Positions 30,550 to 59,637 of a stretch of 64,000 nucleotides of DNA are shown here, piece after piece. This DNA is from Psammoneis japonica (taxonomy: Eukaryota), in NCBI GenBank assembly GCA_008632985.1, contig QPGO01000089.1:62001-126000 (forward strand), in the 5' to 3' direction. The notes beneath the pieces are model-generated. The model was given only the letters and a program-made list of their open reading frames with translations, had not been told where the DNA came from and made no database searches. How positions within the stretch are numbered: the stretch's first letter is position 1; each line of letters starts with the position of its first letter. Both the position numbers and the translations under genes were made by a program.

Positions 30550-33500
30550 TGACGTGACAGGAGCTCCAAAAATCATTGCATGTTGGGCCGCCCGCCTGGA
30601 CGTGAACCTCCTTTCCTCAACAAAGAAACGCTGACACTCACGCGATGTCATGGTCGACACCCCCCTTTGTGGATGGTGCACCACACAATGATTGCCAGCA
30701 CCAAACATAACATGCCACCAGTCATGGTGTCGACACCACGCTCCAGCATGAGAGAAAGCTCTCCCCTTGTTGCAGCACCTCTCTCTCTTGCACCATCTTG
30801 CACTTTTTTGAAGCAGCAGCTGCAAAGCGGCGCGGGGGTCGTCGCACACCTGTCTTGGTGTTGCACGTCTGCAAACAATGACCTGGAACGAGGTGCTTTG
30901 CTGTCAACAAGTGTTTTGTGAAGGAGCAAAAGTTGTTTTTCACTCATCACAGGCAGAGCCATGGTGGTGTGGTGTGTGGTGACTGCTCCTGTGGGTGTGC
31001 CGCACAAAGTCGGGGGCAAGTGGCAGCTCTCTTTTTTTTCAGCTGGGCTGGTGTGTGCGCGAGTGAGAAACCAAAATTGCTCCTTGTGTGCTGCATTCAA
31101 AATCATGGTGTGGCACTGCATGCTGAGAGCTGGCAGCTTTTTTTTCAACCAGGCTGTTGCTCCTTGTGCGCGGCAGCACAAAAAATCATTGTGTGGCTGC
31201 GGTGCAGCGCTCCGAGAGCTGGTGGCTTTCTTTTGTCAACCAGGACAGTGTGTGCTCTGTGTGAAAAGCCAAAGTTACTCCTCACAAGCTGCAGGCAAAA
31301 AATTCATGGCTCTGTGCCACCATGATGCCCCCTGGGGGCTGGGGCAGCTCTGTTTTTTCTCAACAAGGCTGGCTGGCGCCTGTGTGTGACACAGACTGCA
31401 AGCTTCAAAGGGGGGCTTCACAAGTGAGGCCAATGGAAAAACTCTTCCCCAGAATGATCAGTTTTTTTTTTAGACACTGCACCAGTCATGGTTGATTTTT
31501 TTCCCAAGAACAAAGCTGCCAAAGTTTTGCAGCAGGAAGGAGCATCATGTGGGTGGCACTGTGTGAGAGAGAGGGGAGAAGAGAGAGACAGTTGGCCCCA
31601 ATGACTTGATGATGTGGAACAAAGTCAGAGGAGACACTGTTTGATTGACATTGTGCTCCAAGTGAGGTGGTGAAAAATGACATCAGAGATGCCAGCTCAT
31701 CTTTGGGCACACACTTTTTTTGTTGTGGTGCTGGTGGGTGCAAGGGGGCACGGATGGTCAAAAAGAGGAGGTGCCGGGAACACCCCAGTGCTCAGCTGAG
31801 ATGCCTTGGTTTGTCTGTGGCAAAATTGCTGGCACAATGGAGCACATTGCCAACTTGTGCTTGCAACCTGCTGCAGCAGACAAGCTGCTGCCAGGCACTT
31901 GGTCAGAAGAGACTGCACTCTCAGAAGGGGAGTGCCACAGCCCATGGAGACACTGTCTCTGGCCCTTCTTTGGCACAATGCAAGAGCTCTTGCCAGCCAC
32001 CATCATGCAGCTCAGTTGTTTGCACAGGGGCAGTTGTGCCAGGATGGGTCAAATTGTTTTGGGGGAGAGAGGAGCAAAAGGGCACCAAGCTGGGAGAGCT
32101 CTCACCCCCTCTGCAGCACATGAAAAAAATGAAAGCACACACAGGGCTTGTTTGTTGCCACATCTTCCTTCAGAGTGAGCAGGCTCTGTTGTGCTCCAAC
32201 AGCTTTGGCAGAGTTGTGTGAGAACTTCCCTGTGGGGCCAAGCCTCATCCTTTTTTGTTGGTCACATCAAGAAGGCACTTGCACAGTGCGTGGTGGCAAA
32301 CCTCATGGCGATCCAGTTGAGTTGTGCAGCAAGCACATCGTTTCTTTGTGGCACTGCATCTGCATCTTGTGCTTTGCAATTTTGTGCATGAGCTCTCCTG
32401 GTGTGCTTGTGTGACCAACCTGGGCAATCTTTGTGATCACTGTGAGTCAAGGTTGCAACCACCTCCAAAAAAATCATTCACTTGACCACACCTCATCATG
32501 CAGCTCGGCTGACAGCTGCTGTTGTGCAGCACGTCTTTTTTGAGTTCTCATTCTTGCTTGCTTGCCCCACTGCCATTTTGTTTTTCAGCCCAGTTGACTG
32601 CTTGCATGCACCATCATGAAAAACAGGGAAAATGGAGCTCACCGGAGAGTCTCCAACTCCTGTTGCATCATTGTGCTGGAAACTCTCCAAATCAACTGAG
32701 GCCGCTGTGAGCCCTTCCACAGAGCTGGAGCATGTGCGAGTCTGCTGGTGGCTAGAAAAGCAAGAAAAGCACTGGAATTTGCAGCTGCAAAAGAATCACC
32801 AGCAAGCATGTGTTTGCTGGTTTGGGATGCCACAGTGTCATTGGCTGTGGCTGGATGGCTGGATGGCATGGCATGGCTGTGGAAGGGTGGGCTGGCCTGG
32901 CTGGCTGGTGGCTGAGTGGATCTTCTGTGTGGGGGTGACCATTTGGCTGGAACAATTCAACCAAATCTTTTTTTCAACGTTTGTTTGTGCCATCAGGATT
33001 CCTCGTGCTTTTTGTGTGACAAAAAAAGGATTCCAACTGTGGTGCATTTGCTGTTAAGATGTCATCAATGTTGATGTGGGAGGCTGCATCGGCGCATCAT
33101 TGTGTCCACAACCCCCATGGGAAGACATCTGCAATGCAGTGCAACTCCCCAATTTTGTTTTGATGAGCCGTTTTAACATCACTCCTTGTGTTCCTCATGC
33201 AATTTTTGCTGTGCTGTTGCTGCCTCCGACAGAGTGCAAAGGTGCCCAAGACCTCATTGAAGCAGGTTCTTTGTGCCAAGGTGAGTTCTTTTGTTGCACA
33301 TGCTTCAATGACAGTGAAGAAGGCAACTTGATGATTTTGTCCCCAGAAAATCGTTTTGGCTCACAAGCCACACTGGAAGGAGTGAAAAGGACATGATCTC
33401 TGATGTGCGCTGCACTTTGGCAAGTTCTTCTTGCAATTTGACCACAAGTCATTTTTCAGTGCATGTGGACAGCACCCTAGAAATGGGTTTGAAGAGATTC

Positions 33501-34700
33501 ACAGTCAAAGGAAGAAGACAGACAAGTGACATGTGTGGTGAAGCACACAAGCCCATGTCACAGAGCCCGGAAGAGGTGCCGCTGCTGATTTCAGCAGATG
33601 TTGAGACGGCATCTTGCAGAGCCAACATGCAAGCTAGAACACGTGCTGAAGGAGGAATTCATTGGCACAAACAAATCATTTCTTTTCTAAAAATTGTGTC
33701 CAGCAGCATCAAACCAGCAAGCAGTTCACACTTTGCTGGTCCACTTGACTTTTTCTGCATCATCTCCCTCATGTTCAGCATTTCCCACCATGGCAGCAGC
33801 CCTGCTCTTTCCACCATCGTCCACAGCTTTGTCAGCTGACCCCACAACAAACATGACATGCAACATTCAGATTCTTTGTGATCCAAGAATGTGTCATGAA
33901 ACTCACTCAGAAAAACTTGCCATCAGCAATTTCATTGTTTTTGTGGCAAATGTGTTGAACAATGGCATTTGCTGTTTTCTGCAAATCTCTGACTGAGGAC
34001 ATTGCCTGTTCATGCAACCAAGTGAGTGTTTGTTCTTGCACTTGCATGTCCCCTGCTCAAGCTGCCCAATCAACAAACATCTCAGTTGCCACGCACTTGT
34101 TGCACATGCACCGATTGCCCTCTGGCAGTGGGGCTGGTTTGCAAAGCACTTCTTTGGAAGTGCTCTCACACAATGGACTGGGTGTGATTCAAACCACACA
34201 GCAATTTTTCATGTTCAGAAATGTTGTTTGTCACTCCAGTCCCTGGGCACTTTTGAGTGTGTGTCTTCCATTCTTTGTCATTCCCTCTTTCACATTTCCT
34301 TGGCCTCTTTCTTTCATCTCCACCTCCTCTGCTCCCAACCCAGCCAAGCCTGATGATGCACAACAGCTGCAGCAATTCGCTGCACTCAGATCAAAGGAAC
34401 ACTCATGGAGCAATCTTGAAAGCATGTGCCAGCCAGGATTTCATTGAGAGCTGCCATCAAAGTGGATGACAATGGTGGGCAACCCACAGCAACCCCCCTC
34501 ATCCTCTGTCAAGTGTGTCTTTGGCAAAATTTGCACTTTGGTTGTGGCTGCAGGGTTCTTTGTTTTCACTTGCAGCCACTCTTTGCAATTCAGCCCCCCG
34601 GTTCATGCTGGCTGACTGCACTGCTGACTTGCTGCACTTGTTTCACCATTTGCTTCTCTCGTATTATGGAGGCAACATTTCCTTTGGTGTTCTCGATGAA
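30550..34700. mobile_element. Highly degenerate repeat or transposon relic, unclassified, between the two subtilase copies
   Basis: Near absence of both TpA and CpG, no credible ORF, and subterminal-like short repeats at ~30900-31390. Homology between the subtilase upstream flanks breaks down at about 30550. Confidence 0.55.
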
Positions 34701-41199: not shown

Positions 41200-44100
41200 G
41201 TTGCTTTCCTTCATCACAACTGCAAGCCCATCTTCTGGGGTACAAATCACCACATCCCATCAGCTGATCAAAGAATCCCAAAGAGGCATTCTTGTCAATT
41301 GGACAACCCTGGTGTTCCACAAACAGCTTGCTCTGCAGGATCATGGTCATCACATCATCAACTCCAGCCGGCTCAGCTTCTGTGCTGCTTTGGGCACTGA
41401 GCGCCTGCTGTTTGAACATTGTCTGTGCCCCTCCATCACCCATGGTCACAACTCCCCCTGTGTGGCTCTTAAAGTCCAGGTTCACTGCAAATGATGTGTT
41501 CACATGCCACTTGACAACTTGGAGGTCCTTCATTCCATGTCCAGTTCAAACATTTGACACAATGGACTGGTTTGCCCAATCCTTGTTGGTGAGTTCACTC
41601 ACTTGCATGTGCAATGCAGCAACAGTGGGGTGCACATCTGTGTGACCCCTCTTGGAAACAAACAGTCACTTGGCCACCCCTCTGTGGTGGAAGGGTTGTG
41701 CTTTCTTGGTCAGCAGTTGCGTGCTGCCAGCATCAAAAACAGGTTCTCTGCAGCTGGCATCATGGTGACATCCCCACATTCTTGATCATCTCTGGGAACT
41801 TGTCAAGCATCTTCTTGATGCAGCCACTCATGTTGACCTTCACTTTGCCCTTTGCACTGAAATCCAGCATCATCCCCAGGCAGTTGTGCCTCTTTCCTTG
41901 AATGACAATGACCTCATTGTGGCCTCTGCACATCTTGTTGAGCCAGCTCAAGAATTTGCCATTGACCTTTGGGTTCCTGTGGCTTGACAACAGGTTGCCC
42001 ACATGGAAATGAATCATGTGCTGTTTGCCATTGACATTTACATTGGCAATGCATGGATCACACAGGTTGAACTTGAGCCCAATTTTTTCCAAGTCTTTGC
42101 AGAATTGCTTGTGCCACAGCAGAGCCATGGCTGACATGCCACATGCAGCCCTGATGACTTGAACATGGAGGGTGACTCTCTTCCCTTTTCCAGCCAGGAG
42201 CACACATGGTCCATGTGGGTTGGGGATCAATGCTCACAAGTGCGTCAACCAACACTCCTGCAATCTTCATTGTGATCTGGTCTTTGCCCTTCTTGGTGGG
42301 CTTTGGTGGGGTCAAAGTCTGCACAAATGCATTGGGCACATCAGTGCTCATTGCGTCATGCCCTTCTGTGCCAGCATCAACACAGGCTGTCATTGGCGTT
42401 CTCTCTGGTGGCGACACCATTGGGCTGGCTGAAATGTCTTTGTCTGGCCATTGTCTTGTTGGGCTCTCATTGTGAGCCATTTGTGCTCTTTTCCATGACC
42501 ATCTTGCTTCTCCACAAGGAACACAAGAGCTGCCGCAGCCCTTTTCCTCTTGGTCAGAGTTGCATCTTTAACTGACACATTGGTGCAAAGCACACACTCT
42601 GTCATGGAGTTGTCCAATCTCCTGGCATCATGTGCCCTTTCTTGCCAAATGCTTTTTTGGGCCTTTGCGGCTGCAGGAAATGCTTCTGGGCAAAGGAAAC
42701 ACCCTTTCCTGATTGGAGCTGGTCATTGATCTTGCACATGGTGAACCGCGCCATTGTCATTCCCACATTTGAATTGTGCTCCATGTCATCCTTTGGGTTT
42801 GGACTCATGTTTGTTGTCAAATGGTGGCAGCACTCAAGCCACTCCATTCACACTCCACTTCAGTGGTGTTTGCCACTCCTGCAAACTAGACCTTTTTCTT
42901 CTTGTTGTTTGCCTGCAGGTGTGCGCCAGTGTGCCATCCTCTTGGGTTCATCTTCCAATTTGTTTTCATCTTGGGAATCATCATGTCTTGCAACTCATCA
43001 CTGTCCTTTTTTGCTTTGATGTCATCATCATCACAACAATTGCTTTTGGCACTTTTGCTCTCATGCTCCTGTTGACTGGGGCTAGATCTCATGTTTGTGA
43101 GCATCTCACTCACTTCCTCACATTCGTTGTCTGGGTCTTCTTCTTCATGATCTTGGCCATCTGGGTTGTCCTTATTTTCTTTCTCATTGTTGTTGCTGTC
43201 ACTGTCATTGTCAGTGTTGTCTGCTCCTGCAGTCCAATCAGCATCACACAGGTTGTCTCCACACTTGCCTGCAGATTTAACATCTTTGATGCCTTGTTTG
43301 GTGATGCCATCTTTTTGACCACTTGTGCACGTGTGTTGGCAAGGGGTGCAGCAGTGCCCTTGCAAGGGTTCTCAGGAATTTCTTCATGTGCAGGTTTGTG
43401 GTGCAGCATCTGCTTTTTGGATTGTCAAAGTGTGGTTGCAGATGAATGCTGACAGTGCCTCATGTGTCCATTGTGCTTGTTGGATCATTCTCAGCATGAG
43501 ACAGGACAAATTCTCCAAATGAAAACTAAAAGTGTTTGTTGCAGTTGAGGTTTCTGCATTGGGTGGTGGTGTGTGGGCTGTTTGAGTGTCAGAAATTCCT
43601 TCCTTTTGTGAGCGCATGTCAGCCATGACAGTGTTCTTGATTGTGGCATGCTTGCACACTAACTTGGGTCATGCCTTGTGTGGTGGGTGGTGGGTGCAGT
43701 GGCTCGAGTTTGCTCCTTGATGTTTTTGATGCTCTGCTCAACTTCCAAAACACAATCCTTGGCATTTGTGCCAAAAACATGGCCGCCGGTGTTTGCAGAA
43801 ATCAACTCCAGATTCATGCCATCAGCAACTTCCTGCAGAATCTTCTTGAACTTGGAATTGCATTCAACAAAATTGATCTTGAACAAAGCCATGTTGTGCT
43901 GTCACAGAGCTGCATCCAGGGCACAGCACACATTGTCATGCCACTTGGACTTCAGTTTCATGCTTGATTGGCATTTGACCATCTTGCAATCATGTGCTTC
44001 AGTTTAACTCTGTGTGCTTCCATGATGTCAATGCAGGGCATCATGCCCTCTCTTTGCCACTTGCAAATCTCCAGAGGAATCACAATCATGTTGTTCCTCT

Positions 44101-46300
44101 CATGGGAATGACATGCTTGTTTGATCTTGCCTTTCAAGGCATCCATTGGTTGGCTCCACACAGCCACCATCTTGTCCATGATGTCTTTGGGTGCAAAGGA
44201 CAAAAGTTCTTCTTCACCTGAATGGATCATAAAAATTGCTTCAAGTCCCTCACACTTGGAATTCCAGCCTTGTGATGCAGTCTCAGCATGTGCTCAGCAT
44301 TCGCTGCCTCCCTCTTGGAGCAGCCTGTGGCACTCTGATCCATGGCCAGAACTGTGGTTCCTGATGCACCCCTGTGCTCCTTCTTCTTCTTCTTCTTCTT
44401 CTTCAACAGCATGCTCACATGAGACTCTTTCTCTTGAAGCTCATTGACACAGCACAAAAACTTCTCATTGGGTGTGAAAGCACACAGCCTGATGTCACCT
44501 TTGACACCACAAAACCTGCTTGCCAGTCTTTGCATCCAGCAGACAGAACTCATCTGAAGTGTGGTTGTTGCATGTGATGCAGCACTTTTTTCTTCACATC
44601 CTTCAAACTCAGAACATTTGCTGTTGCATTCTCTGACCCAAGCTTTGTGTCTCCCCATGATGGCGTGGCACAGTCTTTGTCCAGTGTGCCCACTCCTGTG
44701 TTTGTGGGCAGATGAGCATTGTTCTTTGCCAGTTGCACAGTGTGCACAAACCTGCCATGCTGAGGGTCAATCATTGTTGAGGATGAGCTCATCCATCTTG
44801 ATGTCCATGTTGGCTTGCATCATGCTTGTTTCTGGTTGCTCACTTGTGAGTTGCAGCCTGTGCCATGCAGCACATCTGCTTCTGGCAGAACAGCTTGGTC
44901 TGTTGGATCTTGTGGTGTTGATGCTTGCGCTGTTGCCATCCACAAGTCTGTGCATGACTGTGTCCCCTGATGTCCAGCTTCTGTCCTGTGTCCTGAAACC
45001 AGTTGTTTTGCACTGCATTGCCCTTGTGCAAGCAGCTTGGGGACTTGTGGCCTTTTCTGCCACAACAGTGGTGCGCACTGTGGCATCACTTTGGTTGCTG
45101 TTCTGGGCATGGCTCTGGTCTTTGCTGTTGTCATTGTCACCATCCTCCTTCTTCTTGCCCTTTTCATTGCTGTTTCTTGTCCTGATGCAGCTGTCCTTTG
45201 GATGGCCCAGCAATGTGTTTGCAGCTGTCTCCATGGTCTTTGGGCAGGAGGCATCCTTGTCTGGACTGCAGTCCCTCACAAAGCTGTTCTTGAGGTCCTT
45301 GCAACAATGATTGTTGCTGTGTGATCTGAGAACAGGTGTGTCATCCACTTCTTGCATGCCCCATCCTTTGGCTGTCTCTGAGTGTCATGATCTGCTTCTT
45401 GACATTGTTTTGTGTTGGCGATGAACCCATCCAACATTGTCTTTCCCTGGACTTTGCTCACAGCATCCTGCTGGTTCTTGAACCTTGACAAACAGTCATC
45501 TCCTGTTCTTTTTTCTCTTGCTGCCTCACATCCGTCAGGAGGTTCTTCAGTGACTTGCTTGGTCAGCATGTGGAATGGATGACAACCTCTCATTGAGTCA
45601 AATGTCAGGGTCTGAATTGGCTTTGACAGCTCAATCAGATTGTCTCTGAGTGCAAGACAGGCTGGATCATGTTGCACTTGTTGCCTCATTTGCCTGGAGC
45701 AACAGTCATCCCATGTTGTGGAGAATGCAACAGCCTCGCTCTCTTTGAACTGCACAATTTTCTTGTGGCTGTCATGCAATTCCTCCATGCACCTCCACTC
45801 CAGCTCCTCGTTTTTGCACTCACACTGTTTTGGCAAGCTTTGGCAATTGGCATTTCCTGGACCTGGTGCTGTCTTTTGGGACATCTTCAGAGCAGGCTTC
45901 TTGGAGTTAAAGTCCTTGCATTTTGTGTCCTCTGGCAATCTTGCCAGATGGACTCCTTGCTCATTTTCCTTCTGCACATGTCAAATGATCCATTCAACAT
46001 TGAAGGATGGAAGTTCAGCTCAGACTGAGAGCACTTCTTGTTGTTGGGACTGTCTGACCTGTGACTCTTGTCTCAGCCATCTCTGTCTTGGCTGCCAACT
46101 TGGCCAGATTGCTTGCCACTCCCTCTGCCGCTCATGGCACAGGAGATCTCAGCTCATCTTTGGAGTGAATGTTAAACCAGCAAGTTGGTGTTGCCAAAAA
46201 GGAATCCTGCTGGGCTTCCTGTGCTGCTTGTTGTTGCACTTGCCTCAGTTTCTGCATTGGCTTTGGGTTGCCTGTGTCGCCAATGCAAAACCTCCAAACT
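41200..46300 (-). mobile_element. Old, heavily mutated Ty1/copia retrotransposon (gag-pol remnants)
   Basis: RNase H 'KWHVNTSFAVNLDFKSHTGG...SAQSSTEAEPAGVDD'. RT 'STDVPNAFVQT...LHVQVIRAACGM...LLWHKQFCKDLEKIGLKFNLCDPCIAN...FHVGNLLSSH...HNCLGMMLDFS'. gag-like remnants at 45276-45977. LTRs not identified. Confidence 0.8.
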
Positions 46301-46309
46301 GACAACACA

Positions 46310-46420
46310 ACAGGCACCTGTTGATGCTGCACAAACCAACAAATGGCTCACTTGAAAGAACAAAAAAAAAAACAGGCACCTGTTGATGCTGCGCAAACCA
46401 ACAAATGGCTCACTTGAAAG
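46310..46420. repeat. Tandem ~62-bp duplication
   Basis: acaggcacctgttgatgctgc(a/g)caaaccaacaaatggctcacttgaaaga occurs twice, separated by an A-run. Confidence 0.8.
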
Positions 46421-47835
46421 AGCAAAAACAAAACAAAAAAAAAGGCAGGGGATCAATGACAGTGGCACACTCTTGTCAAAGATCACCATCATTCTTTGCT
46501 GTGCCAGGATTCAAAATTTCTTTTTTTTCAACATTTCCAGGTCCCACATCTGGGTGTCCCAACAATTTCACCCAGTCAACTTTTTCTCTCCTCTCTCAGC
46601 AAAGTCTGATGCAGTGTCAGCAGGCAACCACAAATTCACTTGGTCCATTGTGTGCTGTGACTTGTGCCGCAATTGTTTTTTTTGTCATTTCTGTGAGACT
46701 TTCTCACAAATTTCATTTGATCAATTTCTGCTTTCTTTGTCCCAACTCAAGTTGACAGGGTGGGAGTTGTGTGCACACCCCGCAGGTGAGGAGCACTGGA
46801 TGCAGCCATGGGGAATTCTCCTGAGCACCTTGTGACTCCCTTTCTCAGTTCAAGAATGGCAGCAGACAGAGAGGAAAAGTGCCAGATCCCTTTTCCAGCA
46901 ATTTTGAAGACTTTGCTGGTGATGAAAAAGAGCAAGAGGCCATTTCTTCTCACTGATCACAGCACAGTGCAGGGAGAATGTGGAGCTGCTGCTGGCAATG
47001 ACTCTCTTTGCAAACAATGAGCAGAAGGTGTGATGTTGCAAGGAAAAAGACATTTGCGCTTGTGTTGCTCTCAAATGCAGTCACAAACAACTGAAATGTT
47101 TTTGAAAATGGGGGGGGGTGCAATTTTGAATCTGCGCAATTTTTTTCAGGTCAACATAAAACACAAAACAGGGAGGCCAACTTGCAACAATGCAAAGCAG
47201 TGCATGCCACAGCATGTGTGGGCAAATGAACAACACAAAAGCAATGAGAAAACACAGCAATTGCAGCTCAGAGACAGACCAGTCTCTGAGTGAGCAGACA
47301 CCAATGATGACAAGGCATGCAGAGACATTGTCAAGGGCAAGAGACCACATCAAAGAAAAAGCAATGCAAACATCATGCTTGAATTTGATGCAAAGCAATT
47401 GGAGGAAACAGCCATGCTGTGTGAAGACAAAATTTGCTGCAAGTGTCACTGGGAGATTGTCGTCAAGCAAGATGGAAAACTGACTCCCACATTTTGCTTT
47501 TTCTCACAAGAGTGCAAGGGTGCAAGAAGACAAAGCAGCAACTCTCTGCTCTGAGGCCAACAGATGTTGCAAGCAAGCTTGAGAGCATCACCAAGAACAA
47601 GGGGTTCACAGAAAAAGAAGTTGTCACAAAGAAGGGAAAGTGTGCAAGAAACTTGAGCACTTTGCAGCAAGCAACTGGAACCCAGCAGAAGAAGACACAG
47701 GTGCAGGAGATGATGCAAAATGCCAAGAAAAAGCAAAGGATGGTTGATGAGAGCCAACAAGTTCTTCTGCAAGATGTTTGCAGAATGCAAACAAGATGTT
47801 GCTGCTGCAAGTGAATGGCTGCTCCTCTGCTGACA

Positions 47836-48111
47836 TGACAGGATTTGAACAGGATTTAGGTGCACGAGAAGCATCGCGCGCTGTTTGGTTTGCCGTGCAC
47901 AGTTTTGTGTGCTTTAGTTCCGCGCGTTCACGCACGATGTAGTTTGCTTTCGAGCCACAAGGCTCACAAGAATGATGACAGCAGCCCGATTGTACCGACT
48001 CACACGTCTTTCGGCTCCTGCAACGGTCTCTGAGCGGAGACTCATCTGCCATTTAGACAGCAGCAAGGAGCCATTGTTTGAATTTTTGCCAATTGCCTTC
48101 AATTTCTGTCA
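47836..48111 (+). repeat. 5' LTR
   Basis: Colinear with 54671-54946; TG...CA ends with a 6-bp terminal inverted repeat. Confidence 0.95.
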
Positions 48112-49052
48112 GATTGACAGTCTTGCTCATTGTCAACCCATTGAGCAACCGCCATCGTCGTCGTTGATTTACCAACGACGCTGTCTCAATTCTGCGTGGA
48201 CCTCCGTGTGTGTTCTACACACATCGGCAAGTCTGCGCGCATTCAACACCAGGGCATCGGCAGGAAGTTAACGTCACCGTCAAGTCTCCTCACCGCTGGA
48301 TGTCTGGATTGATTGTGCTGCCTTTGATCGCTGAAGACTTACATTCAACGGTCACATCCAAGTCTGTCCTTGATCAACATCCCTTGACACACCTGTTCCT
48401 TGGTCAACGGTCAAGAACCCCACATGTTCAAGGATCTCAGTCGCTGAAGACACATGTGTGCATGTGCATGTCTTCACGGCCAAGAACCTTTATCCACTCT
48501 TCGGACTGCGGTTTTGCCACCACTCTACAAGCACACCGAGTCCATTGCACCTGATCCACCCCGGACTGCTGGTGCTCTGCAGTTCCACCAGGTCCACGAG
48601 GACGACTGTGAGAGCAGGTGGCCGTGATTACAGCCTACGTTGGGGCGAGGGTGCTTTCCCGCGTTTGTTCGTTCGTCCACAGCGCCTGACGCCTACGTCA
48701 ACTGGCCAGCCTGATCGGGAAATCCAACCGACATAAAACAAGAACGGTTCGGGGGTCTTGTCCACCTCTAGTCAGCTCACCTGCAGGGGTTTACAACCCG
48801 CTACTCCGCTAGCAAGCAACCCAAAGCGCCACTGGCTGCGGGTTCGGACGTGCCGGCACAACTCTACGGACCGGATGGGAAGTTTAGCACTCAACAACGA
48901 ACGGGACAACAAAGCCCGGCGACTTCTGATTTTAAGACAGTTCAAGATTTCAAGTCAAGTCTGTTTCAAGTCAAGTCTATTCTCACCCAAGTTTCGAGTC
49001 TACCTTCGCTTCCCAACCAGAATTGATTGTCCTGACACCACTTTTGTCTACC

Positions 49053-52000
49053 ATGGTTCTCACTCGTCAGCAACAAACCGATGGTTTCGAGCACGTGGTT
49101 GGAACCGTGCTTGCCCAAGGTGCTGGGAGTCCTCTTCGTTTGGCTTTGGCCCAAGACGGCACGGACTCGCATCAGGAACTATTCACGTTCACACCGTCCC
49201 AAATCGACTCGCTTGAGTGCGACAACGGCACTAATGTAATCCCTTTGCCCCGTGGTTATAAGAACATGTTAGCAGCACTGGTCAGTCTGCACATTGTCAA
49301 AGCACACAAAGGTCTTGACGTTGCCAACGACTCCTCTTTGTTCACGCATGACGAGTTCCTTGCCTGCCGCCTCAGCCCCGACTGCATGTCTTCTGTGTCC
49401 ATCGGCAGCTCACCCCTTGCACCTCCACATGTCACCAACCCGACCAAGGCACGCGACCCGGTGCGGGACTTCAAGCGAGGCATCAAGCGTGATCCCACTG
49501 CTTTCACGGCTCTCAAATCCAACAAGCAGTGGCACACTTGGCACACCTCACTTGTGGCACAAGCCCGTGCCCAAGACGTCGAGTGCATTCTAGACTCGTC
49601 GTACAAACCGACCAGCCCCGAAGACAAACTGCTCTTTGCTGAACAGCAAAAGTGCATGTTCGCCGTCTTCGAACGCATCCTTCTCACCGACAAGGGCAAG
49701 GCTCTCATTCGCGAAAATGTGGGGTCTTCTGATGCACAGACCGTCTGCCGCTCCTTGTCTGAGTGCGCGCTTGCCTCCACCCGCGCATCTGTCGAGTCCT
49801 CCACCCTGCTCACGCACCTCACCACCGCGCGTCTTGGTGATGGCACTTGGAAAGGTCCGACCCACGGGTTCATCCTTCATTGGCAAGATCAGTTGCGCAA
49901 GCACGAGGCACTCATCCCGGCCAGTGACCACTTCTCTGAAGGACAGAAGCGCGTCATGCTCGAGAATGCCGTGCACCCTGTCGAGGAACTCCGTGCTGTC
50001 AAGAACCAAGCTGATCAGCATCGTACGCAGAGTGGCGAGAGCCTCACATGCGATCAATGCTGTGGCTTGCTCCTCTCCGTGGCAGCTCAGCACGACAGCA
50101 TGTTTCAACCCAAGACGACACCTCGAGCTCCCCGACGCGCCACACACGCACACAACGTCCACTCCGAGGAACCGTCCGACGATGTGTTCTACGACATTGA
50201 CAGCGACGTTGACGTCCTTCAAGCCAATGCTGCCCACACCCGCGGTCCCAGCCTCACCGGTGTCCAATGGAGACGTCTCCCTCCTGACCACCAACGGCTC
50301 TGGGATTCGTTGCCCGATTCCTCCAAGGCGATCATCCTTGAGCATTCTCGTCCACCTCCCCGCAACCCGCGAGCCAGTGACTGCCATGAGTCTGTTACGG
50401 CCAACCTTCACGACCAACGCCTTGGGAGTGACGGTGATGTCAACTTGTCCAACACGACTCCTGCTGACTCTGGTGACTCCGCTCCACATGTGGACGCCAC
50501 TTCGGACAATCCCATCCTGGCGCACCTCACCAAGCGCAAGCCACTGCCACCCGGTGATCTGCAACGTCTGTTGTCTCCTAACCAAGCCCCCAATGCCAGT
50601 CGACCGGGGCCATCCGCCGCTTCCTCTACCCCGCCAGCTTCTGCAGATGACATGGAACTTAACGGCCGCACTCACCGCCGCGTTGACAACCACAATGTCA
50701 TTTGCTCTGCCTCTGCTCATCGCTCCACATGCACTGGCGCTCCAGTCGATCGTGGGGCCAACGGCGGCATTGCTGGCGACGACGTTCGCGTCATTGCACG
50801 CACCTCTCGCCAAGTCGACGTTCAGGGCATTGACGATCATCAATTGGTGGACATCCCCATTGTCACCGCTGGTGCCGTCATTGAGACCCAGCGTGGTCCC
50901 GTCATCGCCATCCTCCATCAGTGCGCATGCACGGGAAAGGGCAAGACCATCCATTCCTGCAGCCAGCTCGAATGGCACAAACAGGATGTCAACGATCGCT
51001 CTGTCAAGGTGCCCAACGGCTTGCAACGCATTGCCACTCCTGATGGCTATGTCATCCCCATTGACATCAAGGCTGGCCTGCCTCATGTTGCCATGCGACC
51101 TTGCACTGACGCCGAATGGGACACCCTGCCCCATGTCATCCTCACCGGTGATGACACATGGGACCCTTCCGTCCTCGATCACTCTGTCACTGACGACGAC
51201 CAGTGGCACGACGCAATCTCTGACCCACAGGACGATCCCACTGCCAACCTGTTTGACGAATGCGGCAACTACCGTCATCGTGTCGTTGTCAACGAGACCA
51301 TCATGTCCGCTTCCTTGTCTGCCGATCACGCGTCCGCCCTCGATGATCACCTCATTCCGAACGACGACGTGTTCTACGAGTGTCATCTGCATGCGATTGG
51401 CCCCCAGGGCGATGACGTTCCACCTCCGGAGCGCACTGTACAGCCCAAGGACCCCCCCTTCGAGTCTCTTCGGCCTTGCTTTGGCTTCCTACCCACCGAT
51501 GCGGTCCATCGTACTTTTGACTGCACCACGCAGTGCGCCCGCATGCCCGCCGGTACACACCTTCGCAAGGCCTGCAAATCACCCAACCCCGCCCTTAATG
51601 TGCACCGCCGCAACGAGCCTGTCGCCACTGACACCGTTCATGCCGACACCCCGGCCGTCGACTCTGGTTGCACCAGCGCCCAACTGTTTGTTGGCACCGA
51701 GTCTACCGTCACTGACGTCTACGGCACTAAGACGGACAAAGAGTTTGTCAACACACTCGAGGATCAGATCCGTGAACGTGGTGCCCCATCCAAACTCATT
51801 AGCGACCGTGCTCAAGTTGAGATCAGCAACAAAGTGCTCGGGATCCTGCGCGCCCTCTTCATCTCTAGCTGGCAAAGTGAGCCTCACCAGCAACACCAAA
51901 ACTTTGCCGAGTGTCGACACCAGACCGTGAAGCGCATGGCGAACACTGTCATGGATCGTTTTGGTTCGCCCGCCCATGCATGGCTGCTGGCGCTCATGTG

Positions 52001-54723
52001 CGTGTGCTTCACACTCAACCATGCAGCGTCCCCACGTCTCCACTGGTGCATGCCCCTCGAGACTCTCACTGGCTCCACCCCGGACATCAGCCCATTGCTT
52101 CGCTTTCACTGGTGGGAACCCGTGCACTTCCACCTCGATGACTCCGATTGGCCGTCTGAATCCCGTGAGTTGCGTGGACGCTTCGTTGGCATTGCTGAGC
52201 ACGTCGGCCACCAGATGACCTTCAAGATTCTATCTGACGAGACTCAGAAGATCCTCTGCCGGTCCAACGTCCGCTCCGCCACCCCCGATCCTGCCGTTCG
52301 AAACCTGCGTCTTGATCCTCCTGATGGGGAGCCACCTGAACCCATCATCAAATCTCGCCATGACGACAACCCCGTCGACTCTCCTGATGGGGAGATCAGG
52401 ACACCCAAGATGCCAGTTTTTGATCCGCAAGACATCATTGGACGTACCTTCCTCATGCAGCCACAAGAGGATGGACAACGCCACAGAGCTCGCATCGTCA
52501 AGGCCGTCGAAGACCACGAATGGAAAGTGAACGGCAATCCCGAGCTCACTGAGTTCGTCTGCTCTGTCAACAATGACGAATACGAGGAAGTCCTTGCCTG
52601 CAATGACATCATGAATCACATTGAGCAAGAAGACGAAGACACCACTGTTTGGAAATTTTGACGCATCGTGTCACACGAAGGACCTCTGAAGCCTCACGAC
52701 CCAACCTGGAAAGGCTCCAGCTACAACATCATGCTTGAATGGGAAAGTGGGGAGATCACGTCCGAGCCTCTTGCCATCATCGCCAAGGACGACCCCGTCA
52801 CCTGTGCCATCTATGCACGAGAGAACGGACTCCTCGACACGGATGGCTGGAAGCGGTTCCGCACCATCGCGAGGCGCCAAAAGAAGCTGTTTCGCATGGC
52901 CAACCAAGCCAAGCTTCGCTCCTTCCGCACTGCACCTCGCCACAAGCATGGATGCGAAGTTCCCCGGAACTACAAACACGCCATGTCACTAGACAAACGC
53001 AACGGCAACCGCAAGTGGGGAGACGCAACTAATCTCGAGATGGACCAACTCGACGAATACAAAGTCTTCCATGACTGCGGGCCCTTCAAGTCTTCCACTC
53101 CTCCTGCGGGACACAAGAAGATCCGAGTGCACCTGGTGCACGACGTGAAACACGACGGTCGCCACAAGGCATGACTCGTAGCCGACGGGCACCTCACGGA
53201 CGTACCCATCGACAGTGTCCACTCCGGAGCAGTCTCCCTCCGTGGCCTTCGGCTGATGATTTTCCTGGCCGAACTCAACGAGTTGGAGACATGGGCCACC
53301 GACATTGGCAATGCCCACCTTGAAGCCACCACCAAGGAGAAGCTGCACATTGCAGCTGGACCCAAAATTTTGCAAACTCGAAGGACACATCCTTGTCATC
53401 CACAAGGCACTGCATGGACTGCGCAGCTCCGGTCTCCGCTGGCACGAGCGCTTCGCCGACTGCCTGCGAGCTGAAGGCTTCTTCCCCTGCCACGCCGAAC
53501 CCGACATTTGGATGCGCAGGAACGGCGACCACTGTGAATGCATTGCCGTTTATGTGGATGACCTCGCCATTGCCATGAAGGACCCTCAATCTTTTGTCGA
53601 CACTCTCACGGAAAAGCACAAGTTCAAGCTCAAGGGTGCGGGACCCATTGAGTTCCATCTGGGTTGCGACTTTTCCCGGGAACCCGACGGAACCTTGTGC
53701 TTGTCTCCGCGCAAGTACATCAAGCGCATGGTCGACAGCTGTGCCCGACTGTTTGGGGAGAAACCTGCCACCAACGCCCTGTCACCTCTAGAGAAGGGTG
53801 ACCACCCCGAACTGGACACTTCCGAACTGCTGGGACCCGATGGCATTCACAAGTTCCAGTCTCTTGTTGGTTCACTCCAATGGGCAGTGTCCCTTGGTCG
53901 AATTGACATTGCCACGGCCGTCATGTCACTCTCTAGCTTCCGAGCTGCGCCCCGTCAAGGCCACTTGGATCGTGCCAAACGCGTCTGTGGGCACCTCTCC
54001 AAGATGCAACACGGTGCTCTCCGCGTTCGCACGGAAGAGCCCGACTGTTCGGATCTCCCTGCTCCGGCCTGTGAATGGATGCATTCCGTGCATGGTGAGG
54101 CAGAAGAGATGATCCCGAAGGATGCTCCACCGCCCCTTGGCAAGTTCGTCACTGCCACCCACTACGTCGATGCAAACTTGCACCATTGCATGCTCACCGG
54201 ACGCTCTGTCATGGGAATGCTCCACTTCCTCAACAAATTCCTGGCTGATTGGTTCTCTAAGAAACAAGCCACCGTAGAGACTGCGACCTGCGGGTCTGAA
54301 TTTGTTGCCGCAAGGACTTGTGTTGAGCAGATTGTCGACCTGCGCATCACCCTGCACTGCCTTGGCGTCCCGATCCGTAACGTCAGTCACATGTTCAGTG
54401 ACAACAAGTCGGTTGTAGACAGTGCCACCATCCCGCACTCCAAGTTACACAAGCGACACACCGCACTGTCGTTCCACCGTGTGCGTGAGGCAATTGCCTC
54501 TGGTTGCCTTGAGTTCCACTTCATCGAAGGCTCCCGCAACCCTGCTGACATTCTCAGCAAGCATTGGGGTTGCTCCCAAATCTGGGACCTTCTCCGCCCC
54601 CTCATGTTCTGGAACTTCATTCCATCCGAAGTCGAATCTGTTTCTGTGGCTCCTCAAGCAAACTGGGGAGTGACAGGATTTGAACAGGATTTAGGTGCGC
54701 GCAAAGTATCGCGCGCTGTTTAG
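49053..54723 (+). pseudogene. Copia gag-pol polyprotein pseudogene
   Basis: Protease-like VDRGANGG; integrase 'ATDTVHADTPAVD...LISDRAQ...SEPHQQHQNFAE'; RT 'DIGNAHLEA...KALHGLRSSG...YVDDL'; RH 'YVDANL...SDNKSVV...NPADILSK'. TGA stops at 52659 and 53172, both at expected Arg (CGA) positions; +1 frameshift at ~53365. Confidence 0.92.
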
Positions 54724-54946
54724 TTTGCCGTGCACAGTTTTGTGTGCTTTAGTTCCACGCGTTCACGCGCGATGTAGTTTGCTTTCGAGCCACAAGGCTC
54801 ACAAGAATGATGACAGTAGCCCGATTGCACCAACTCACACGTCTTTTGGCTCCTGTGACGGTCTCTGAGCGGAGACTCATCTGCTGTTTAGACAGCAGCA
54901 AGGAGTCATTGTTTGAATTCTTGCCAATTGCCTTCAATTTCTGTCA
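54671..54946 (+). repeat. 3' LTR
   Basis: Preceded by the PPT and followed by the TSD TGACA. Confidence 0.95.
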
Positions 54947-54951
54947 TGACA

Positions 54952-57700
54952 GGAAGATTTGCACAGGAGAACTGCAGCCAACTGTTGAAAGCAAACAGGA
55001 AAAGGGCTTGATGGCTTGGGTGATGAGGGAGACCACATGATGAGCTGTGCCAAGACATGTGAGCTGGAGTCAGTTGTGGCAGTTTTGCAGACAAAAACCC
55101 ACAAGCAGAATTTTTTCATTGTTCAACATGAGATTCCAAGGCAACACTCCACTCCAGAAACCGCATTTTAGACAGCAACCATCAAGTTGAACATTTTGGG
55201 GATGCAAACTTGGTGAGTTTTGCTGCACACTGACTGGGTTGATAAGATCTTTGCTTGCAACCTTGGACATCTGTTGGAAAAATGGGCACTCATGTGTTTT
55301 CAAATCTTGCACCAACTCATGATGAAAGGGGTGGTTTGTGACAAATCTGACTGATTTGTCACAAATGAAATCATGCGCTTGCACTCACACATCTTTTCTT
55401 GGACTTCAGTCCACTCATCAGTCAGGGGGGGGACTCCCAAATTTGCCCCCCTCCCCCCCGATGCCATGCCGTGGCTTCAGCCAATGCTCAGCAGACAACA
55501 CAAACACTCAAAAAGTGTGCTGGTCAGCAACACAACAACTGCTCTTTGGGCACGCACAAGCATTTTGCAAGTGCATGAAGCAAAGTTCTTGCTGGACATT
55601 GTGGCATGTCTCCATTGGAAACATGGGCAGCTTTGACAGACAGCTGCTGTTTCACCTTGAGCTTGCTTGTTCCAAAGACATGTGCAGTCAAGTGCACGCA
55701 GAGAAAAGCACCAACAAGCCTTCAAATTTGCACAGCAATCATGTGTGGATGATGTTCAATGACTGAACTCCAGCAGATTTGGCTTGCAATGAGAGTGAGA
55801 CAATCAACTTGCGTGCTTTTGGCAAAGAGCTGAAGTGGCCACATCAACAAAAGATGATGATGTGTTTTTCAAAACATCAAACAGAGATTTTTGTGAGCTC
55901 CGCGCGGCAACAACAAGAAGTGATTCAGAAACCCACATTGTTCCTGTGGTGTTTGCCAATCCAAATTTTTTGAGAGTGGTGGGGGAAACCAGTGATGTTT
56001 CACTCTCACATTTGTGCGGCTTTTGCAAACCCCAATGCGGCGCATCAGTCCATTTGACACAGCGCAAGCTCCAAACTCCAAGATTTCTTTTCCTCTGCTT
56101 CATGCACCTCACTGCATTGTTGCATCATGTGTCACCCCTCACACACCCACGATGGCAGAAAAAACCACAAACCCTGCCAACGCTGCAGTTGCATCACACC
56201 ATGTCAGTTTGGGATGATCAAGCTCAATCAATTCCATGGTTGCATGTTTGTGAAATTAACAGAGATGGTGCTGACCACCAAAAGCAAATGCTGAGTCAGA
56301 ATTTGACCACAGCAGCACACAAGATGCAGAAAAAGAGCCCAAGAGGCAGGAATTGGAGGCAGTGCAAAAGACAAGCAACAAAACATTAACACAGCAGTGG
56401 CTGTTCAAGACTTCTGAATTGTTCAAAATGGCAGCCTTGGTGCATGCATTGGCGCCATTGTGGGGTCAGTGTTTGAATTCATGGATGGCGTGAAAACAGC
56501 AGGAAAATCAGAGGTGTTGAAAAAGATGTCCAGCTTGGCAAAAAAGCAAGCATGTTTTGCAGGGCACAATGCAATCGGCAAGCTTTTTTGTGGTGGCTTT
56601 TTTGGTGGACATCATGTTGCAAGTTCTGCACAAAGCTGCCCAATGCATGTGATGCACAGCTTGTCATGGAAATGGCAAGTTTGTTTTGGGCAAGAAAAAT
56701 CAGAGTGCATGTGAGCCATCCTCTTTTGCATTGCAAACACATTGGCGCACCTTTCCTCTTGTTCAAAATGCAGTCTGTCTCATTCAATGCCTTTTTTGGA
56801 ATTGCACAAATGTGGATTGTGTGCTGCAATGGATCCTGGCACTCCAGATGAGATTTGTCAAGCCTGGCTGACATCCATGGGGATGACAATGTCTTGGCTG
56901 GCACTTTGTCCATTCTTGCCCTGTGCTGGTGTGCACATTGCTGAGTTTTGTCCTTCACTGAAGACATTGTTTGGAGATGTGCAACCCAAAAGTGTCTTTC
57001 TTTGGTTGCCAACTGTCACGAAATTTAATTCTAGCCTCGCTCTTCACTCTGTTGCCATTCATTTCCAATCACAGTCAGCATCTTCATGCAAGAAATGGAC
57101 AAGCAGTGGTGCAGTGGTTGGCAAGCTGCAGAGAGATTTGATCCACAAACTGCTTTGTGTTTGATTCCAGCACCACTTTGCCCCATGATGCACAAGAGAG
57201 TGAGGGACTGGTTTGTTCCATGAAATTGTTGCAGCAGTTGGCAGGGAAGTCATCAGTGAATCCACAATGTTCACATCAAACAGTTGCTGTCATGCAAGCA
57301 ACATCAGCACCTCCCGCTCCATCACTGGGCAGGTGAAATTCAATGAGTTGGTTGTGTGGAAACAGAATTGCAAGTCATTTGAGCCACTCACAAATGCCAA
57401 TGATTTTCACAGCCAGGAAGAAAATGAGTTGGCAATGATGCATGCAAGCATGTGGCTGGCAGAATCATGAAACTCTCACAAGCCTTGAAAGAGCCCTTCA
57501 TGCAGCAGAAGCAGCCCAAGGAGTTGCAACAAGAATTTGAAGCCATGCTCCACTGTTTTGAGAAACTCCATGTCAAGCAACATCAACAAAATGGCACTGA
57601 GTCACAACAAGAGTTTGATGCAATTGAGTCTGCCGAGGAAGTTTATGACACATGTCCCATGAGGAATTTGATGCCCCACAAAAAACTGTTTAATTCTTCA
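54952..57700. mobile_element. Unclassified degenerate repeat relic, continuing the 46300-47835 sequence that the copia inserted into
   Basis: TpA- and CpG-depleted with no credible ORF. The TSD shows the two flanks were contiguous before the insertion. Confidence 0.45.
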
Positions 57701-57739
57701 CAATTGTTCATGCTCTAGACGCCTGTAAAAGCCAATCCG

Positions 57740-58884
57740 TTTGAGCATTTTTTATGAAAACACTTCACGTGCTAATGTGTGCACACCTTACATTCAAAAT
57801 CGATTGTCGTTTTGTGTGTCACCTGGGGCTGGAACACGTCGTGGAAAAAGAGAACACTGGGATTTGTTGGCCGCCATGGTCACCTTGATTCTTCTTGATC
57901 ATGAAGCCCAATCTGCAGTGCTTGGTGCATGTCTTTCCTTTGGCTTGATCCGCAAGCCTGTCATGAGAGTCGTTGGCTCAATGTGTGGTTTGGACTTTCA
58001 AATGGGAGACAGCAAGCGCAGAATGTTGAGGCTCCATTGGCTGTGTTCAGGGATTTGAACAAATGCATTGGACAAATGGCGCACAAGCACATGTCTGCAC
58101 TCTCAGCTTCTTTCTGCTGGAGTTTGCACCTGAAGGATCTGTGTCAAGTGCATCAGCACTTGTGGCGCCCAAAGCACAGATGCTTGACGTGTCCAAGAGC
58201 ATCAACCTCATCAACGGTTTGCACAGCTCAGTTCAATGTGGCCTCTCTCCTTGTTTCCATGACATGAGAGCTGGGCATCAGCTTGGTTTTGGTGCCTTTT
58301 CTGACCCTCTGGTGGGCTGTGGAGGCTGCCGAGATGGGGTGACAAGAAGTTTGGCAGAGCTTCAGAAATGTTCATGCACGAACCCTCAGGTGAAACTTCT
58401 GGAGCAATTGTTGATGAGCTCGCCACTCTTTTGACATTGGGAAGGCTCAGCACCAAGAACAAGAAGCATGCTGCAGCTGCTTTTGATGCTGCAGTGGTCA
58501 ACGTTGAAATCCAAGGATTTGTGAGACAATGTGGCCACATTGCAAACCTTGCAATTTGGTTGAACACTCCCTCAAAACTCTGGCAATGGCGTGGAACATG
58601 CCTGGGGTGGCAACTGCTTTGTGGCTGGTGGAGCCATCAAGGGTGGCAGAATCTTGGGAGAGTGTGGTCCTTCCGACATGTCTGAGAACAGCAAAGTTGA
58701 TGTTGAAAGAGGGCAGCTCATCCCGACAACTTCTTGGGATCTGATCTGGCCCGGCATTGCACAATGGACCGGCATCACCAATGCTGAAGATTTTGACCAT
58801 GTCTGCCCAAATCGTGGCAATTTTGTTTCCACATTTGCTGCATTTGATTTGTTTGAGAATGCACCTCAAGATTCAATCCCATGA
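57740..58884 (+). pseudogene. Deleted and mutated fragment of a DUF1800-DUF1501 fusion gene
   Basis: 'DLLAAMVTLILLDHEAQSAVL...KPVMRVVGSM', 'IGQMAH', 'APKAQML...INGL', 'IVDELATLLTLGRLS', then the DUF1501 C-terminus 'HAWGGNCFVAGGAIKGGRILGEC...RGQLIPTTSWD..W.GIAQW.G...PNRGNF'. Confidence 0.75.
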
Positions 58885-59637
58885 CCCATCCCCAGAGGCA
58901 ACAGAGAGATGTCTGCACCTGGAGAGCAGCAGCCTGGCAAAAGCCCCTCTCCACCACCCATGATGCACCCCAACGCAAACTTGGAATCATCTGCAGTGCC
59001 CCACATGGTTGTCGCCTTTGCTTCCAGCATGCTGGTCCTGTCAGTCCCAACTGGGATTCAGCCAGTTTGGCGCCTTTCCGCAAGTGCGCATTGGATGCCC
59101 ATTTGTGCATTGGATGCCCATTTGCAGGAGACAAGTTGGTGAGTGACATTAGAATGAGTAACAACAAGAAGAAGCTGCTGCTTCTCAATGGACAGTTCGG
59201 AGATGGAGTGCGCTCAACAGACAAAACCTCACACAATTGAGTTTGTCGAAAGACAACTGCGACGAGACGCGGTCTGCAAGAATTCGCATCAACCGGAGCA
59301 CCCTTTTATCGCACTGTGCTCCCAACAAGGCCACCACTGGCAACCAACACAATGACAAAACAGATCACAAGCTCTACTTGCACAGCACAAAACAAGAGGA
59401 GGCAGTTCCCACCTACATGATGCGAATCGAAAAAGAAGCAGCAGCAAGACCCGCCTGAGCAATGGCAAATTCTATGGCCACCATCGCAATCACTTGCGAA
59501 CGGAATAGAGTAACCCCCCAAAACCCCCGCTCTGCATTATATAATTTAGACCGCTGCTTTATTATGCATGAGTCGCAATGGTGAAGCATGCGCTCGCAGT
59601 GCCGGTACATCCATTGGTCGTCCCTCTCTGTGCCCTG

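Follow-up and report, generated by a model that had tools for sequence, protein, structure and literature searches.

How a retrotransposon can lose most of its conserved tyrosines while other conserved residues stay in place is the question raised by a Ty1/copia element in a 64,000-nt stretch of Psammoneis japonica DNA (contig QPGO01000089.1, positions 62,001 to 126,000). This whole stretch is referred to as the window, and all positions are given in its own numbering. The element is a retrotransposon of 7111 nt with direct long terminal repeats (LTRs), which have TG...CA ends, and with a 5-bp target-site duplication. An original prediction, made from copia consensus motifs, had read a directional replacement of Tyr by His or Cys throughout gag-pol and had described the copy as a snapshot of an incomplete process that outpaces CpG decay. 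We propose that a process confined to transposons and repeats turns T:A into C:G at TpA dinucleotides, that it is driven by an enzyme and that it proceeds faster than CpG decay. A probability of roughly 0.75 was assigned to this reading.

The translation of the element, with X at stops and the two frames as separate pieces, was aligned to 75 full-length relatives of 1800-1990 aa, which came from 120 listed proteins; the remaining 45 were left out for length. At the 567 columns that were at least 90% conserved, Tyr was kept at 7 of 29 positions and replaced by 11 Cys, 9 His and 2 Phe, and each of the other residue types was kept at 86-100%. The loss was specific for Tyr (Fisher p=2.5e-20), and replacements of Tyr by His or Cys made up 20 of all 49 replacements at these columns. 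At columns at least 80% conserved (n=746), Tyr was kept at 10 of 37 positions (replaced by 12 His, 12 Cys, 2 Phe and 1 Trp), and at columns at least 60% conserved (n=1039) at 11 of 54 (19 Cys, 18 His, 5 Phe and 1 Trp). The relatives themselves retained 25-37 of the 37 Tyr columns of the 80% level and lacked the His and Cys residues. The element codons at the lost Tyr columns were CAC or CAT and TGC or TGT, each a single transition away from TAY, as had been claimed.

All nine peptides on which the prediction was built were present in the translations. A His was found where 75/75 relatives have Tyr in both DIGNAHLEA (consensus motif AYL) and KALHGLRSSG (LYGL), and a Cys stood over Tyr of 73/75 relatives in ETATCGSEF (TYGSEF) and of 69/75 in KHWGCSQIW (WGY). 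In DHCECIAVYVDD both Cys residues stood over Tyr of 74/75 relatives, but the first His was aligned with V, I or L, and the assumed HYEY was wrong at that position. Several assignments held in part only. The first Cys of HQCAC stood over Tyr of 72/75 relatives, but the second lay in a mixed column (L35/Y17/H17) and was ambiguous; of the three columns covered by RHKHGC (Y52/F23, Y65 and F53/Y19), the middle one agreed with the claim, but the last residue fell in a mixed column. In VHDVK (column F52/Y23) and DANLHH (M43/Y20/F12) the His was present, but the mixed columns were ambiguous and the ancestral Tyr was not firm. The statement that some Tyr survive agreed with the 7 of 29 kept at the 90% level, but the Tyr of GYKN, named as a survivor, lay off the conserved Tyr columns (D35/E17).

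The target of the changes was found to be the TpA dinucleotide, not the Tyr codon. The coding DNA was compared with 42 relatives, which were those of 80 fetched loci with an open reading frame (ORF) of at least 1000 codons, and ancestral dinucleotides were defined from nucleotide columns at least 70% conserved in these 42 coding sequences. Per 1000 codons, the element contained 8.3 TA in codon phase 1-2 (median of the relatives 37.4, minimum 27.8), 8.3 in phase 2-3 (36.4 and 13.2) and 10.9 in phase 3-1 (65.6 and 36.0), a reduction of 4-6 fold in all three phases. The phase 1-2 frequencies of CA (91.9) and TG (43.6) were above the maxima of all 42 relatives, and those of CG (59.7, 34.8 and 117.8 in phases 1-2, 2-3 and 3-1, respectively) were above the relatives' medians. 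Ancestral TA was kept at 11 of 43 sites and had become CA at 17, TG at 13 and TT at 2, when the other 15 dinucleotides were kept at 68-95%; ancestral CG was kept at 32 of 37 sites. The comparison of ancestral TA with other contexts had been proposed as a check in the original prediction, and its outcome supported TA and Tyr as ancestral and His and Cys as derived. The interior of the element had a TA observed/expected ratio of 0.22 and the LTRs had ratios of 0.29-0.40, compared with 0.41-1.02 in 78 of the 80 relatives' loci. Selection at the codon level, specific for Tyr, was rejected, as TA had disappeared to the same extent from synonymous and codon-boundary positions and from the LTRs.

It had also been stated that both strands were hit and that CpG was still abundant. 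The outcomes CA (17-20) and TG (13-15) were about equal in number, and 490 CG were counted in the 7111 nt, with an observed/expected ratio of 0.89 (internal part). Along the element, the CA and TG outcomes formed 21 runs, with 18.1 +/- 2.9 expected; such a lack of strand runs is unlike processive single-strand action. RTAY sites were hit hardest and YTAR sites survived best: the 153 surviving TA of the five depleted domains of the window were distributed as R_Y 13, mixed 68 and Y_R 72, in comparison with 470, 830 and 249, respectively, in host DNA (chi-square p=1e-21). Ancestral TA preceded by a 5' purine had become CA in 14 cases and TG in 4, and TA preceded by a 5' pyrimidine in 6 and 11 cases, respectively (Fisher p=0.018). 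Every hit therefore acts like a T>C change in 5'-RTA-3' or, read on the complementary strand, like A>G in 5'-TAY-3'; these data do not distinguish which of the two bases is attacked.

The effect was wider than originally described, since it comprised TpA in every codon phase and in non-coding DNA, a flanking preference and several unrelated repeat domains. The loss of TA was confined to certain domains and was not a genome-wide bias. When the window was classified from 500-nt bins, sharply bordered depleted regions A-D were distinguished from the copia element and from host DNA (Table 1). In these regions the TA observed/expected ratio was 0.02-0.2, and that of CA+TG was 1.6-2.0 in 2-kb bins of the fully depleted stretches. 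The longest TA-free stretches measured up to 1678 nt, compared with one TA per 22 nt in host DNA. The sum of TA, CG, CA and TG was constant across the domain classes (236-252 per kb), as predicted if TA and CG are converted into CA/TG. The copia element with its intact target-site duplication lies inside regions C and D and is therefore a younger insert in an older, fully converted repeat. The claimed incomplete process that outpaces CpG decay was supported by this graded series of domains, together with the retention of 11/43 ancestral TA against 32/37 ancestral CG.

Region A contained a remnant ORF (2300-3109, + strand), unrelated to copia, with three uncharacterised homologues (P0121-P0123; 460-496 aa, no Pfam family) at 33-38% identity and E=6e-17 to 6e-11. 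The remnant has C, C, H and H at four columns where two or all three of the homologues have Tyr. It is possibly a mobile-element or viral protein. No Pfam family was found above the cut-off in 12 ORFs from depleted or border regions. A tblastn search with three copia proteins and a self-blastn of the window revealed no further copia piece and no similarity among regions A-D.

The timing of the loss was estimated from the LTRs, which differed at 17 positions, 16 of them transitions and 1 a transversion. Five differences were of the CpG type, four were single TA-versus-CA/TG differences, four positions belonged to two CA-versus-TG doubles and three were other transitions; 4 TA and 14 CG were common to both LTRs. 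Since LTRs are identical at integration and these now differ at TA-type sites, at least part of the TA loss arose in the chromosome after integration. The two doubles are as expected from independent TA>CA and TA>TG hits in the two LTRs; by our own arithmetic, about 0.1-0.2 doubles would be expected from CpG, of which each LTR has lost about 0.13 per site. The rough rates per site and lineage, which rest on small numbers, were 0.5-0.7 for TA, about 0.14 for CpG and about 0.009 per nt for other changes. The decay of TpA was about 4-5 times faster than that of CpG in the LTRs, and the counts for region A and for the conserved coding sites put the factor at about 10-25.

Sister copies were represented by contigs of four runs of the same organism (X1-X4) that were placed on the stretch at a likeness of at least 80%. 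Run X1 alone contributed 15,231 pieces, and the summed contig depth reached 68,000-132,000 over the element but 190-2800 over its flanks; therefore, the family is highly repeated. The copies differed mostly by transitions in both directions, the places with differences in run X1 being A>G 280, T>C 287, C>T 270 and G>A 257, whereas any one transversion accounted for 33-46. At 49902-3, in a column with Tyr in 97% of relatives, CA was read in the window and TG in all 12 covering contigs. At 48001 both window LTRs had C(A) and 58 contigs had T(A), and a 29-nt loose end at 48172 differed from the window at three positions; at two of them the sister copy still had TA and the window had TG. It follows from this pattern that some losses were inherited via retrotransposition of already hit copies and that others are private.

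The signature was also found in other sequences. Two metagenome contigs with one shared accession prefix (L023 and L034) had TA observed/expected ratios of 0.02 and 0.13. Of the 26 conserved Tyr of the first, a single one was kept, with 12 H, 7 C and 6 F in place of the others, and the second kept 2 of 16 (7 C, 5 H and 2 F), in comparison with three control loci that kept 22/22, 34/37 and 28/29. These two contigs suggest that the process is not limited to a single strain. In the protein P0107, 11 of 37 Tyr were His or Cys, and the other conserved residues were kept at 93%. The six Tyr>Phe replacements of L023 were a feature absent from the window copy.

From these results a TpA-directed process can be modeled as follows. 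As TpA is palindromic, TA would become CA or TG according to the strand hit. The process would act on chromosomal DNA after integration, prefer 5'-RTAY-3' and spare 5'-YTAR-3', and hit sites singly without long single-strand runs, at a per-site speed several-fold to more than ten-fold above that of CpG>TpG/CpA decay in the same DNA. The copia copy would represent a mid-stage, with roughly three quarters of TA gone and CpG intact, region A a later stage, and regions B, C and D the end point, at which TA and CG are gone and CA+TG has doubled. As consequences, Tyr codons would turn into His or Cys codons, TAA and TAG stops would be erased so that long ORFs survive, TA-containing signals would disappear and GC content would rise, each the reverse of the effects of fungal RIP (repeat-induced point mutation). 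The sequence data show the TpA signature itself, its restriction to repeat domains, its dependence on flanking bases, its higher speed than CpG decay and an origin at least partly after integration. We infer that the process is enzymatic and targeted to silenced transposon chromatin; a rate tens of times above background at one dinucleotide, together with a flanking preference and domain borders, is hard to obtain without an enzyme.

Several observations weigh against this proposal. The LTR counts are small, and ectopic conversion among the many copies could have imported some of the differences. The loss of TA was about 0.75 inside the element against about 0.4-0.5 per LTR, and some losses (48001, 49902-3) were common to both LTRs or to most copies; these two findings imply that part of the loss predates the insertion, and a contribution of an RNA stage is conceivable. 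No homologues were found for regions B, C and D, where the direction was deduced from composition and mass balance. All four runs came from one sample, possibly the source of the window assembly itself, and the per-site cases of sister copies given above were the best-supported among those listed, with 1386 further differences beyond them. The evidence consists of sequence, in which no enzyme, modified base or targeting signal was seen.

The RNA-stage alternative was considered first. It was assumed that sense and antisense transcripts are edited from A to I at UA by an ADAR/ADAT/TadA-like deaminase and that the edits are fixed by reverse transcription over many cycles. Such enzymes produce A>G with a 5' U/T and a preference for a 3' pyrimidine, as in TAY, with Tyr>Cys as the typical coding outcome; the target of tRNA adenosine deaminases is A34 following U33, TadA of bacteria changes UAC Tyr codons to Cys, and UA-preferring mRNA editing occurs in fungi. 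The changes observed here equal A>G on either strand with a 5' T, the family is very high-copy, and the TA losses common to copies or to both LTRs were hence inherited via retrotransposition. However, ADAR, ADAT and TadA act on RNA and their edits are not inherited, whereas the changes described here are permanent in the DNA, affect both strands, extend to non-coding sequence and arose in part, at least, once the element had integrated. The LTRs differed at four single TA-type sites and two CA/TG doubles, the non-coding LTRs and flanks were depleted as much as coding DNA, and domains A-D combined observed/expected ratios of 0.02-0.2 with sharp borders. In addition, CA and TG outcomes were interleaved without strand runs, unlike hyper-edited RNA. 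ADAR-type hyper-editing fixed by reverse transcription was rejected on account of the LTR differences at TA-type sites and the 21 runs against 18.1 +/- 2.9, and RNA-stage editing in general was judged unlikely.

A sequencing or assembly artefact would require that a modified T or A at transposon TpA is misread as C or G and that the genome truly contains TA. Modified motifs cause systematic consensus errors in some long-read assemblies, and the platform used for the window and for runs X1-X4 is not on record, which also counts against our proposal. However, Tyr>His/Cys occurred as well in the two metagenome contigs, which belong to a different assembly, and in P0107. The pattern was copy-specific (CA in the window and TG in the others at 49902-3), 20-25% of TA survived in a context-dependent manner, the old domains had lost CpG as well, and the element showed ordinary decay (2 stops and 1 frameshift). 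An artefact was therefore considered very improbable.

An untargeted mutation bias of the host, or GC-biased gene conversion, visible only where selection is absent, was given slightly less weight still. The changes do run from AT to GC, and the GC content of the element was 0.56 against 0.47-0.50 in the surroundings. Host intergenic DNA, however, had more TA (54/kb) than host ORFs (38.8/kb), other AT>GC replacements were not raised (Phe, Asn, Ile, Lys and Met columns were kept at 74-100% in the element), two 88%-identical paralogues in the same window showed an ordinary spectrum, and the domain borders were sharp. The functional recoding of an active copia lineage that uses His and Cys in place of Tyr, for which the preserved long ORFs and the TA losses common to most copies might speak, can practically be dismissed, as at least 20 invariant Tyr were replaced, including those of reverse transcriptase (RT) motifs, the frame carried two in-frame stops and a frameshift, TA was equally lost at synonymous, codon-boundary and LTR positions, and sister copies differed at the same site.

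The proposed TpA process was further compared with known systems. It resembles repeat-induced point mutation (RIP) of filamentous fungi in that dense transitions at a single dinucleotide, on either strand, are confined to transposons or repeats, disable the element permanently and produce a dinucleotide-ratio footprint with sharp borders. RIP differs in that C:G>T:A changes, mainly CpA to TpA, create stops and AT-rich DNA, are triggered by duplication and occur in strand-coordinated runs, as described in part in PMC2621366. Here, T:A>C:G changes at TpA destroyed TpA, removed stops and raised GC without strand runs. RIP was rejected by direction, considering the TA observed/expected ratios of 0.02-0.22, the excess of CA/TG and the element GC of 0.56. 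It was also rejected with regard to its trigger. Two subtilase genes (27242-30430 and 35076-38268), a tandem pair, were 87.7% identical over 3197 nt and had normal TA; their 389 differences comprised 212 transitions and 177 transversions, 36 being of the TA<>CA/TG type. Since this duplicate was unaffected, duplication at 87.7% identity is not by itself the trigger.

The decay of methylated CpG is alike in that a palindromic YpR dinucleotide turns into TG/CA in silenced repeats. It was also active here, as seen from the two apparent CGA>TGA stops, the five CpG-type LTR differences and the CG content of 5-13/kb in regions B-D, and it represents a second, slower process in the same DNA. Its target is CpG and not TpA, whereas the changes described here replace AT by GC and outrun the loss of CpG around them; spontaneous deamination of 5-methylcytosine (5mC) is unable to give the TA loss. 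As the main change in the copia copy it was rejected, given that 32/37 ancestral CG were kept against 11/43 TA and that the CG observed/expected ratio was 0.89. Many relatives were strongly CpG-depleted with normal TA (e.g. L068 with CG 0.03 and TA 0.61), hence the TA loss is not a mere companion of methylation decay. Separately, it was noted that L068, L026, L073, L032 and others had CpG observed/expected ratios of 0.03-0.25 with TA of 0.57-0.72, and in other hosts these elements appear to decay by CpG loss alone.

APOBEC3 proteins likewise inflict host-driven hypermutation that is recorded in genomic retroelement copies. They change C to U in the minus-strand cDNA, which appears as G>A, and do so prior to integration, with strand bias and a TC/CC context. 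APOBEC3 was rejected, as none of these features was found in the changes of the element.

Two chemistries could be considered for the TpA process, and they fit about equally. In the first, thymine at TpA would be oxidized to 5-hydroxymethyluracil (5hmU) or 5-formyluracil (5fU) by a TET/JBP-type dioxygenase, and the product would occasionally pair with G; 5fU is able to form such a pair. The palindromic target would permit a maintained mark with T>C as a by-product, in the same manner as 5mC at CpG gives C>T. In the second, adenine in 5'-TAY-3' would be deaminated to hypoxanthine by a DNA-acting deaminase, and the high mutability of RTAY is compatible with such a context, which is similar to the U-A step recognized by tRNA adenosine deaminases.

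A precedent for the first chemistry exists in dinoflagellates, in which 5hmU, the product of a TET/JBP homologue, shows enrichment on transposons and has a silencing effect on them, according to the consulted passages of PMC11572971 and PMC11071213. Older work cited there reported that T is replaced preferentially in TA and TC, and a base-resolution mapping of 5hmU in Breviolum found no motif (PMC11071213). The passages of both papers on motif, dinucleotide or mutation contained no T>C mutational footprint or TA depletion. The likeness would lie in an enzymatic thymine modification on transposons; the host of the window, with its dense, mixed-orientation and intron-poor genes, is not dinoflagellate-like.

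We lean slightly towards a more specific form of the proposal, namely a RIP-like genome defence with new chemistry in a photosynthetic stramenopile, probably a diatom. An enzyme at transposon chromatin would modify TpA, best in RTAY, and drive T:A>C:G until every TA is gone, which would make TpA a second heritable mutagenic epigenetic dinucleotide beside CpG. The enzyme might be a 5-methylpyrimidine dioxygenase that makes 5hmU/5fU, with 5mC at CpG as a further possible substrate; alternatively, it might be an adenine deaminase of DNA. Every Tyr codon, TAA or TAG stop and TATA-like signal would be lost along with TA.

To our knowledge, transposon-directed hypermutation has so far been known as C>T (RIP, methyl-CpG decay and APOBEC) or as RNA editing. 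Our literature search found no description of TA>CA/TG hypermutation of transposons, although the genome paper of the organism or others outside its coverage could hold one, and the parts seen of two diatom transposon papers made no mention of transitions, RIP or dinucleotides. If true, a DNA-level TpA process that replaces AT by GC and outpaces the decay of CpG would add a new mutational signature to these and would probably involve a new DNA enzyme activity, a natural adenine deaminase or a mutagenic thymine oxidase. If confirmed, the chemistry would be new; transposon-directed hypermutation as such is already known. The process would explain old repeats that are invisible to homology searches yet keep long ORFs. 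Further, TA and CG set against CA+TG would give a simple genome-wide index for dating and finding silenced DNA, and the questions of which TpA base is modified and which protein is responsible are testable in a culturable alga.

The features of the element and the depleted regions are collected in Table 1.

Table 1. Coordinates and TA/CG content of the copia element, its parts and the depleted regions of the window.
Feature	Position	Strand	TA	CG	Basis or remark
Host DNA			38-44/kb	54-65/kb	
Region A	1..5500		4.5/kb (lost)	45.3/kb (mostly kept)	
Region B	30700..34660		2.3/kb (lost)	11.6/kb (lost)	spacer between two subtilase paralogues
Region C	41250..47835		2.1/kb (lost)	5.2/kb (lost)	left flank, copia insertion target
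Target-site duplication, left copy TGACA	47831..47835	+			LTR alignment; identical 5 nt after 3' LTR
Ty1/copia element	47836-54946		11.3/kb	68.9/kb	
5' LTR, 276 nt	47836..48111	+	5	17	termini TGACAG...CTGTCA
gag-protease-putative integrase and first part of RT, frame 0	48936..53393	+			translations, alignment to relatives; tblastn
1-nt frameshift (approximate site)	53394..53397	+			GPEFG motif region; alignment to relatives
Remainder of RT (Pfam RVT_2) and RNase H, frame 1	53398..54723	+			stop TAG at 54721; 3' end overlaps 3' LTR
3' LTR, 276 nt	54671..54946	+	7	16	
Target-site duplication, right copy TGACA	54947..54951	+			LTR alignment
Region D	54947..59150		3.1/kb (lost)	12.8/kb (lost)	right flank of copia

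The protein search gave 1685 relatives; among those listed, the best was 73% identical over the RT part, and many were uninterrupted proteins of 1850-1920 aa. The search for near-length homologues found no sister copies, the best among the 120 matches listed being 69% identical, and two of the near-length homologues listed bore names of the diatom Cylindrotheca (~64-65% identity). With relatives P0001/P0006 as tblastn queries, the match spanned 49053-53369. In-frame TGA stops were located at 52659-52661 and 53172-53174, where the relatives have Arg, and both look like CGA>TGA changes. A sister-copy loose end at 53363 (11 reads) continued in frame. The Pfam scan of the element ORF revealed RVT_2 alone (E=1.4e-13; E=3.8e-31 and 2.4e-27 in the intact relatives P0006 and P0084), and no rve domain was detected in the element or in intact relatives. 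A profile of 11 relatives gave a weak match to retroviral integrase chains (E=0.004-0.005) at profile positions 909-1011, upstream of RT, where an integrase would lie in the Ty1/copia order PR-INT-RT-RH.

TA was better preserved in the stretch 48500-49000, between the 5' LTR and gag (13 per 500 nt), than elsewhere in the element. This stretch was also the most variable part among sister copies, with 49 differences in about 620 nt of contigs. One run X1 contig joined 47744 to 55018 and skipped 7273 nt, with joints 92 and 72 nt outside the LTR ends. It is no clean empty site and may be a paralogous copy of the flank without copia.

The host ORFs in the rest of the window were dense, of mixed orientation and almost intron-free, and encoded a kinase, the two subtilases, a NUDIX protein, an ERV/thioredoxin protein and an ankyrin/IQ protein. 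An atlas look-up of one host protein gave Eukaryota, with one cluster in which Bacillariophyta prevailed, and the host is probably a diatom or closely related to diatoms. Both subtilases had long open frames and the domains Inhibitor_I9/Peptidase_S8/PA/fn3_6. Between the second subtilase and a ChaN-like gene, a 315-nt patch without TA was observed at 38574-38889 (10 TA, 17 CG and 54 CA in bin 38501), which could represent a solo LTR or some other short insert that has been converted. Two adjoining ORFs of the same frame (59638-61713, - strand), which border on region D at its right end, were separated by a single stop; in the downstream one a protein kinase domain was matched over its C-terminal portion (E=0.003), and the pair could be a pseudogene or contain a short intron. 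A 144-nt tandem repeat (17256-17563; 2.1 copies, 92% matches) was found within a 619-aa ORF (17105-18964) that has no Pfam family.

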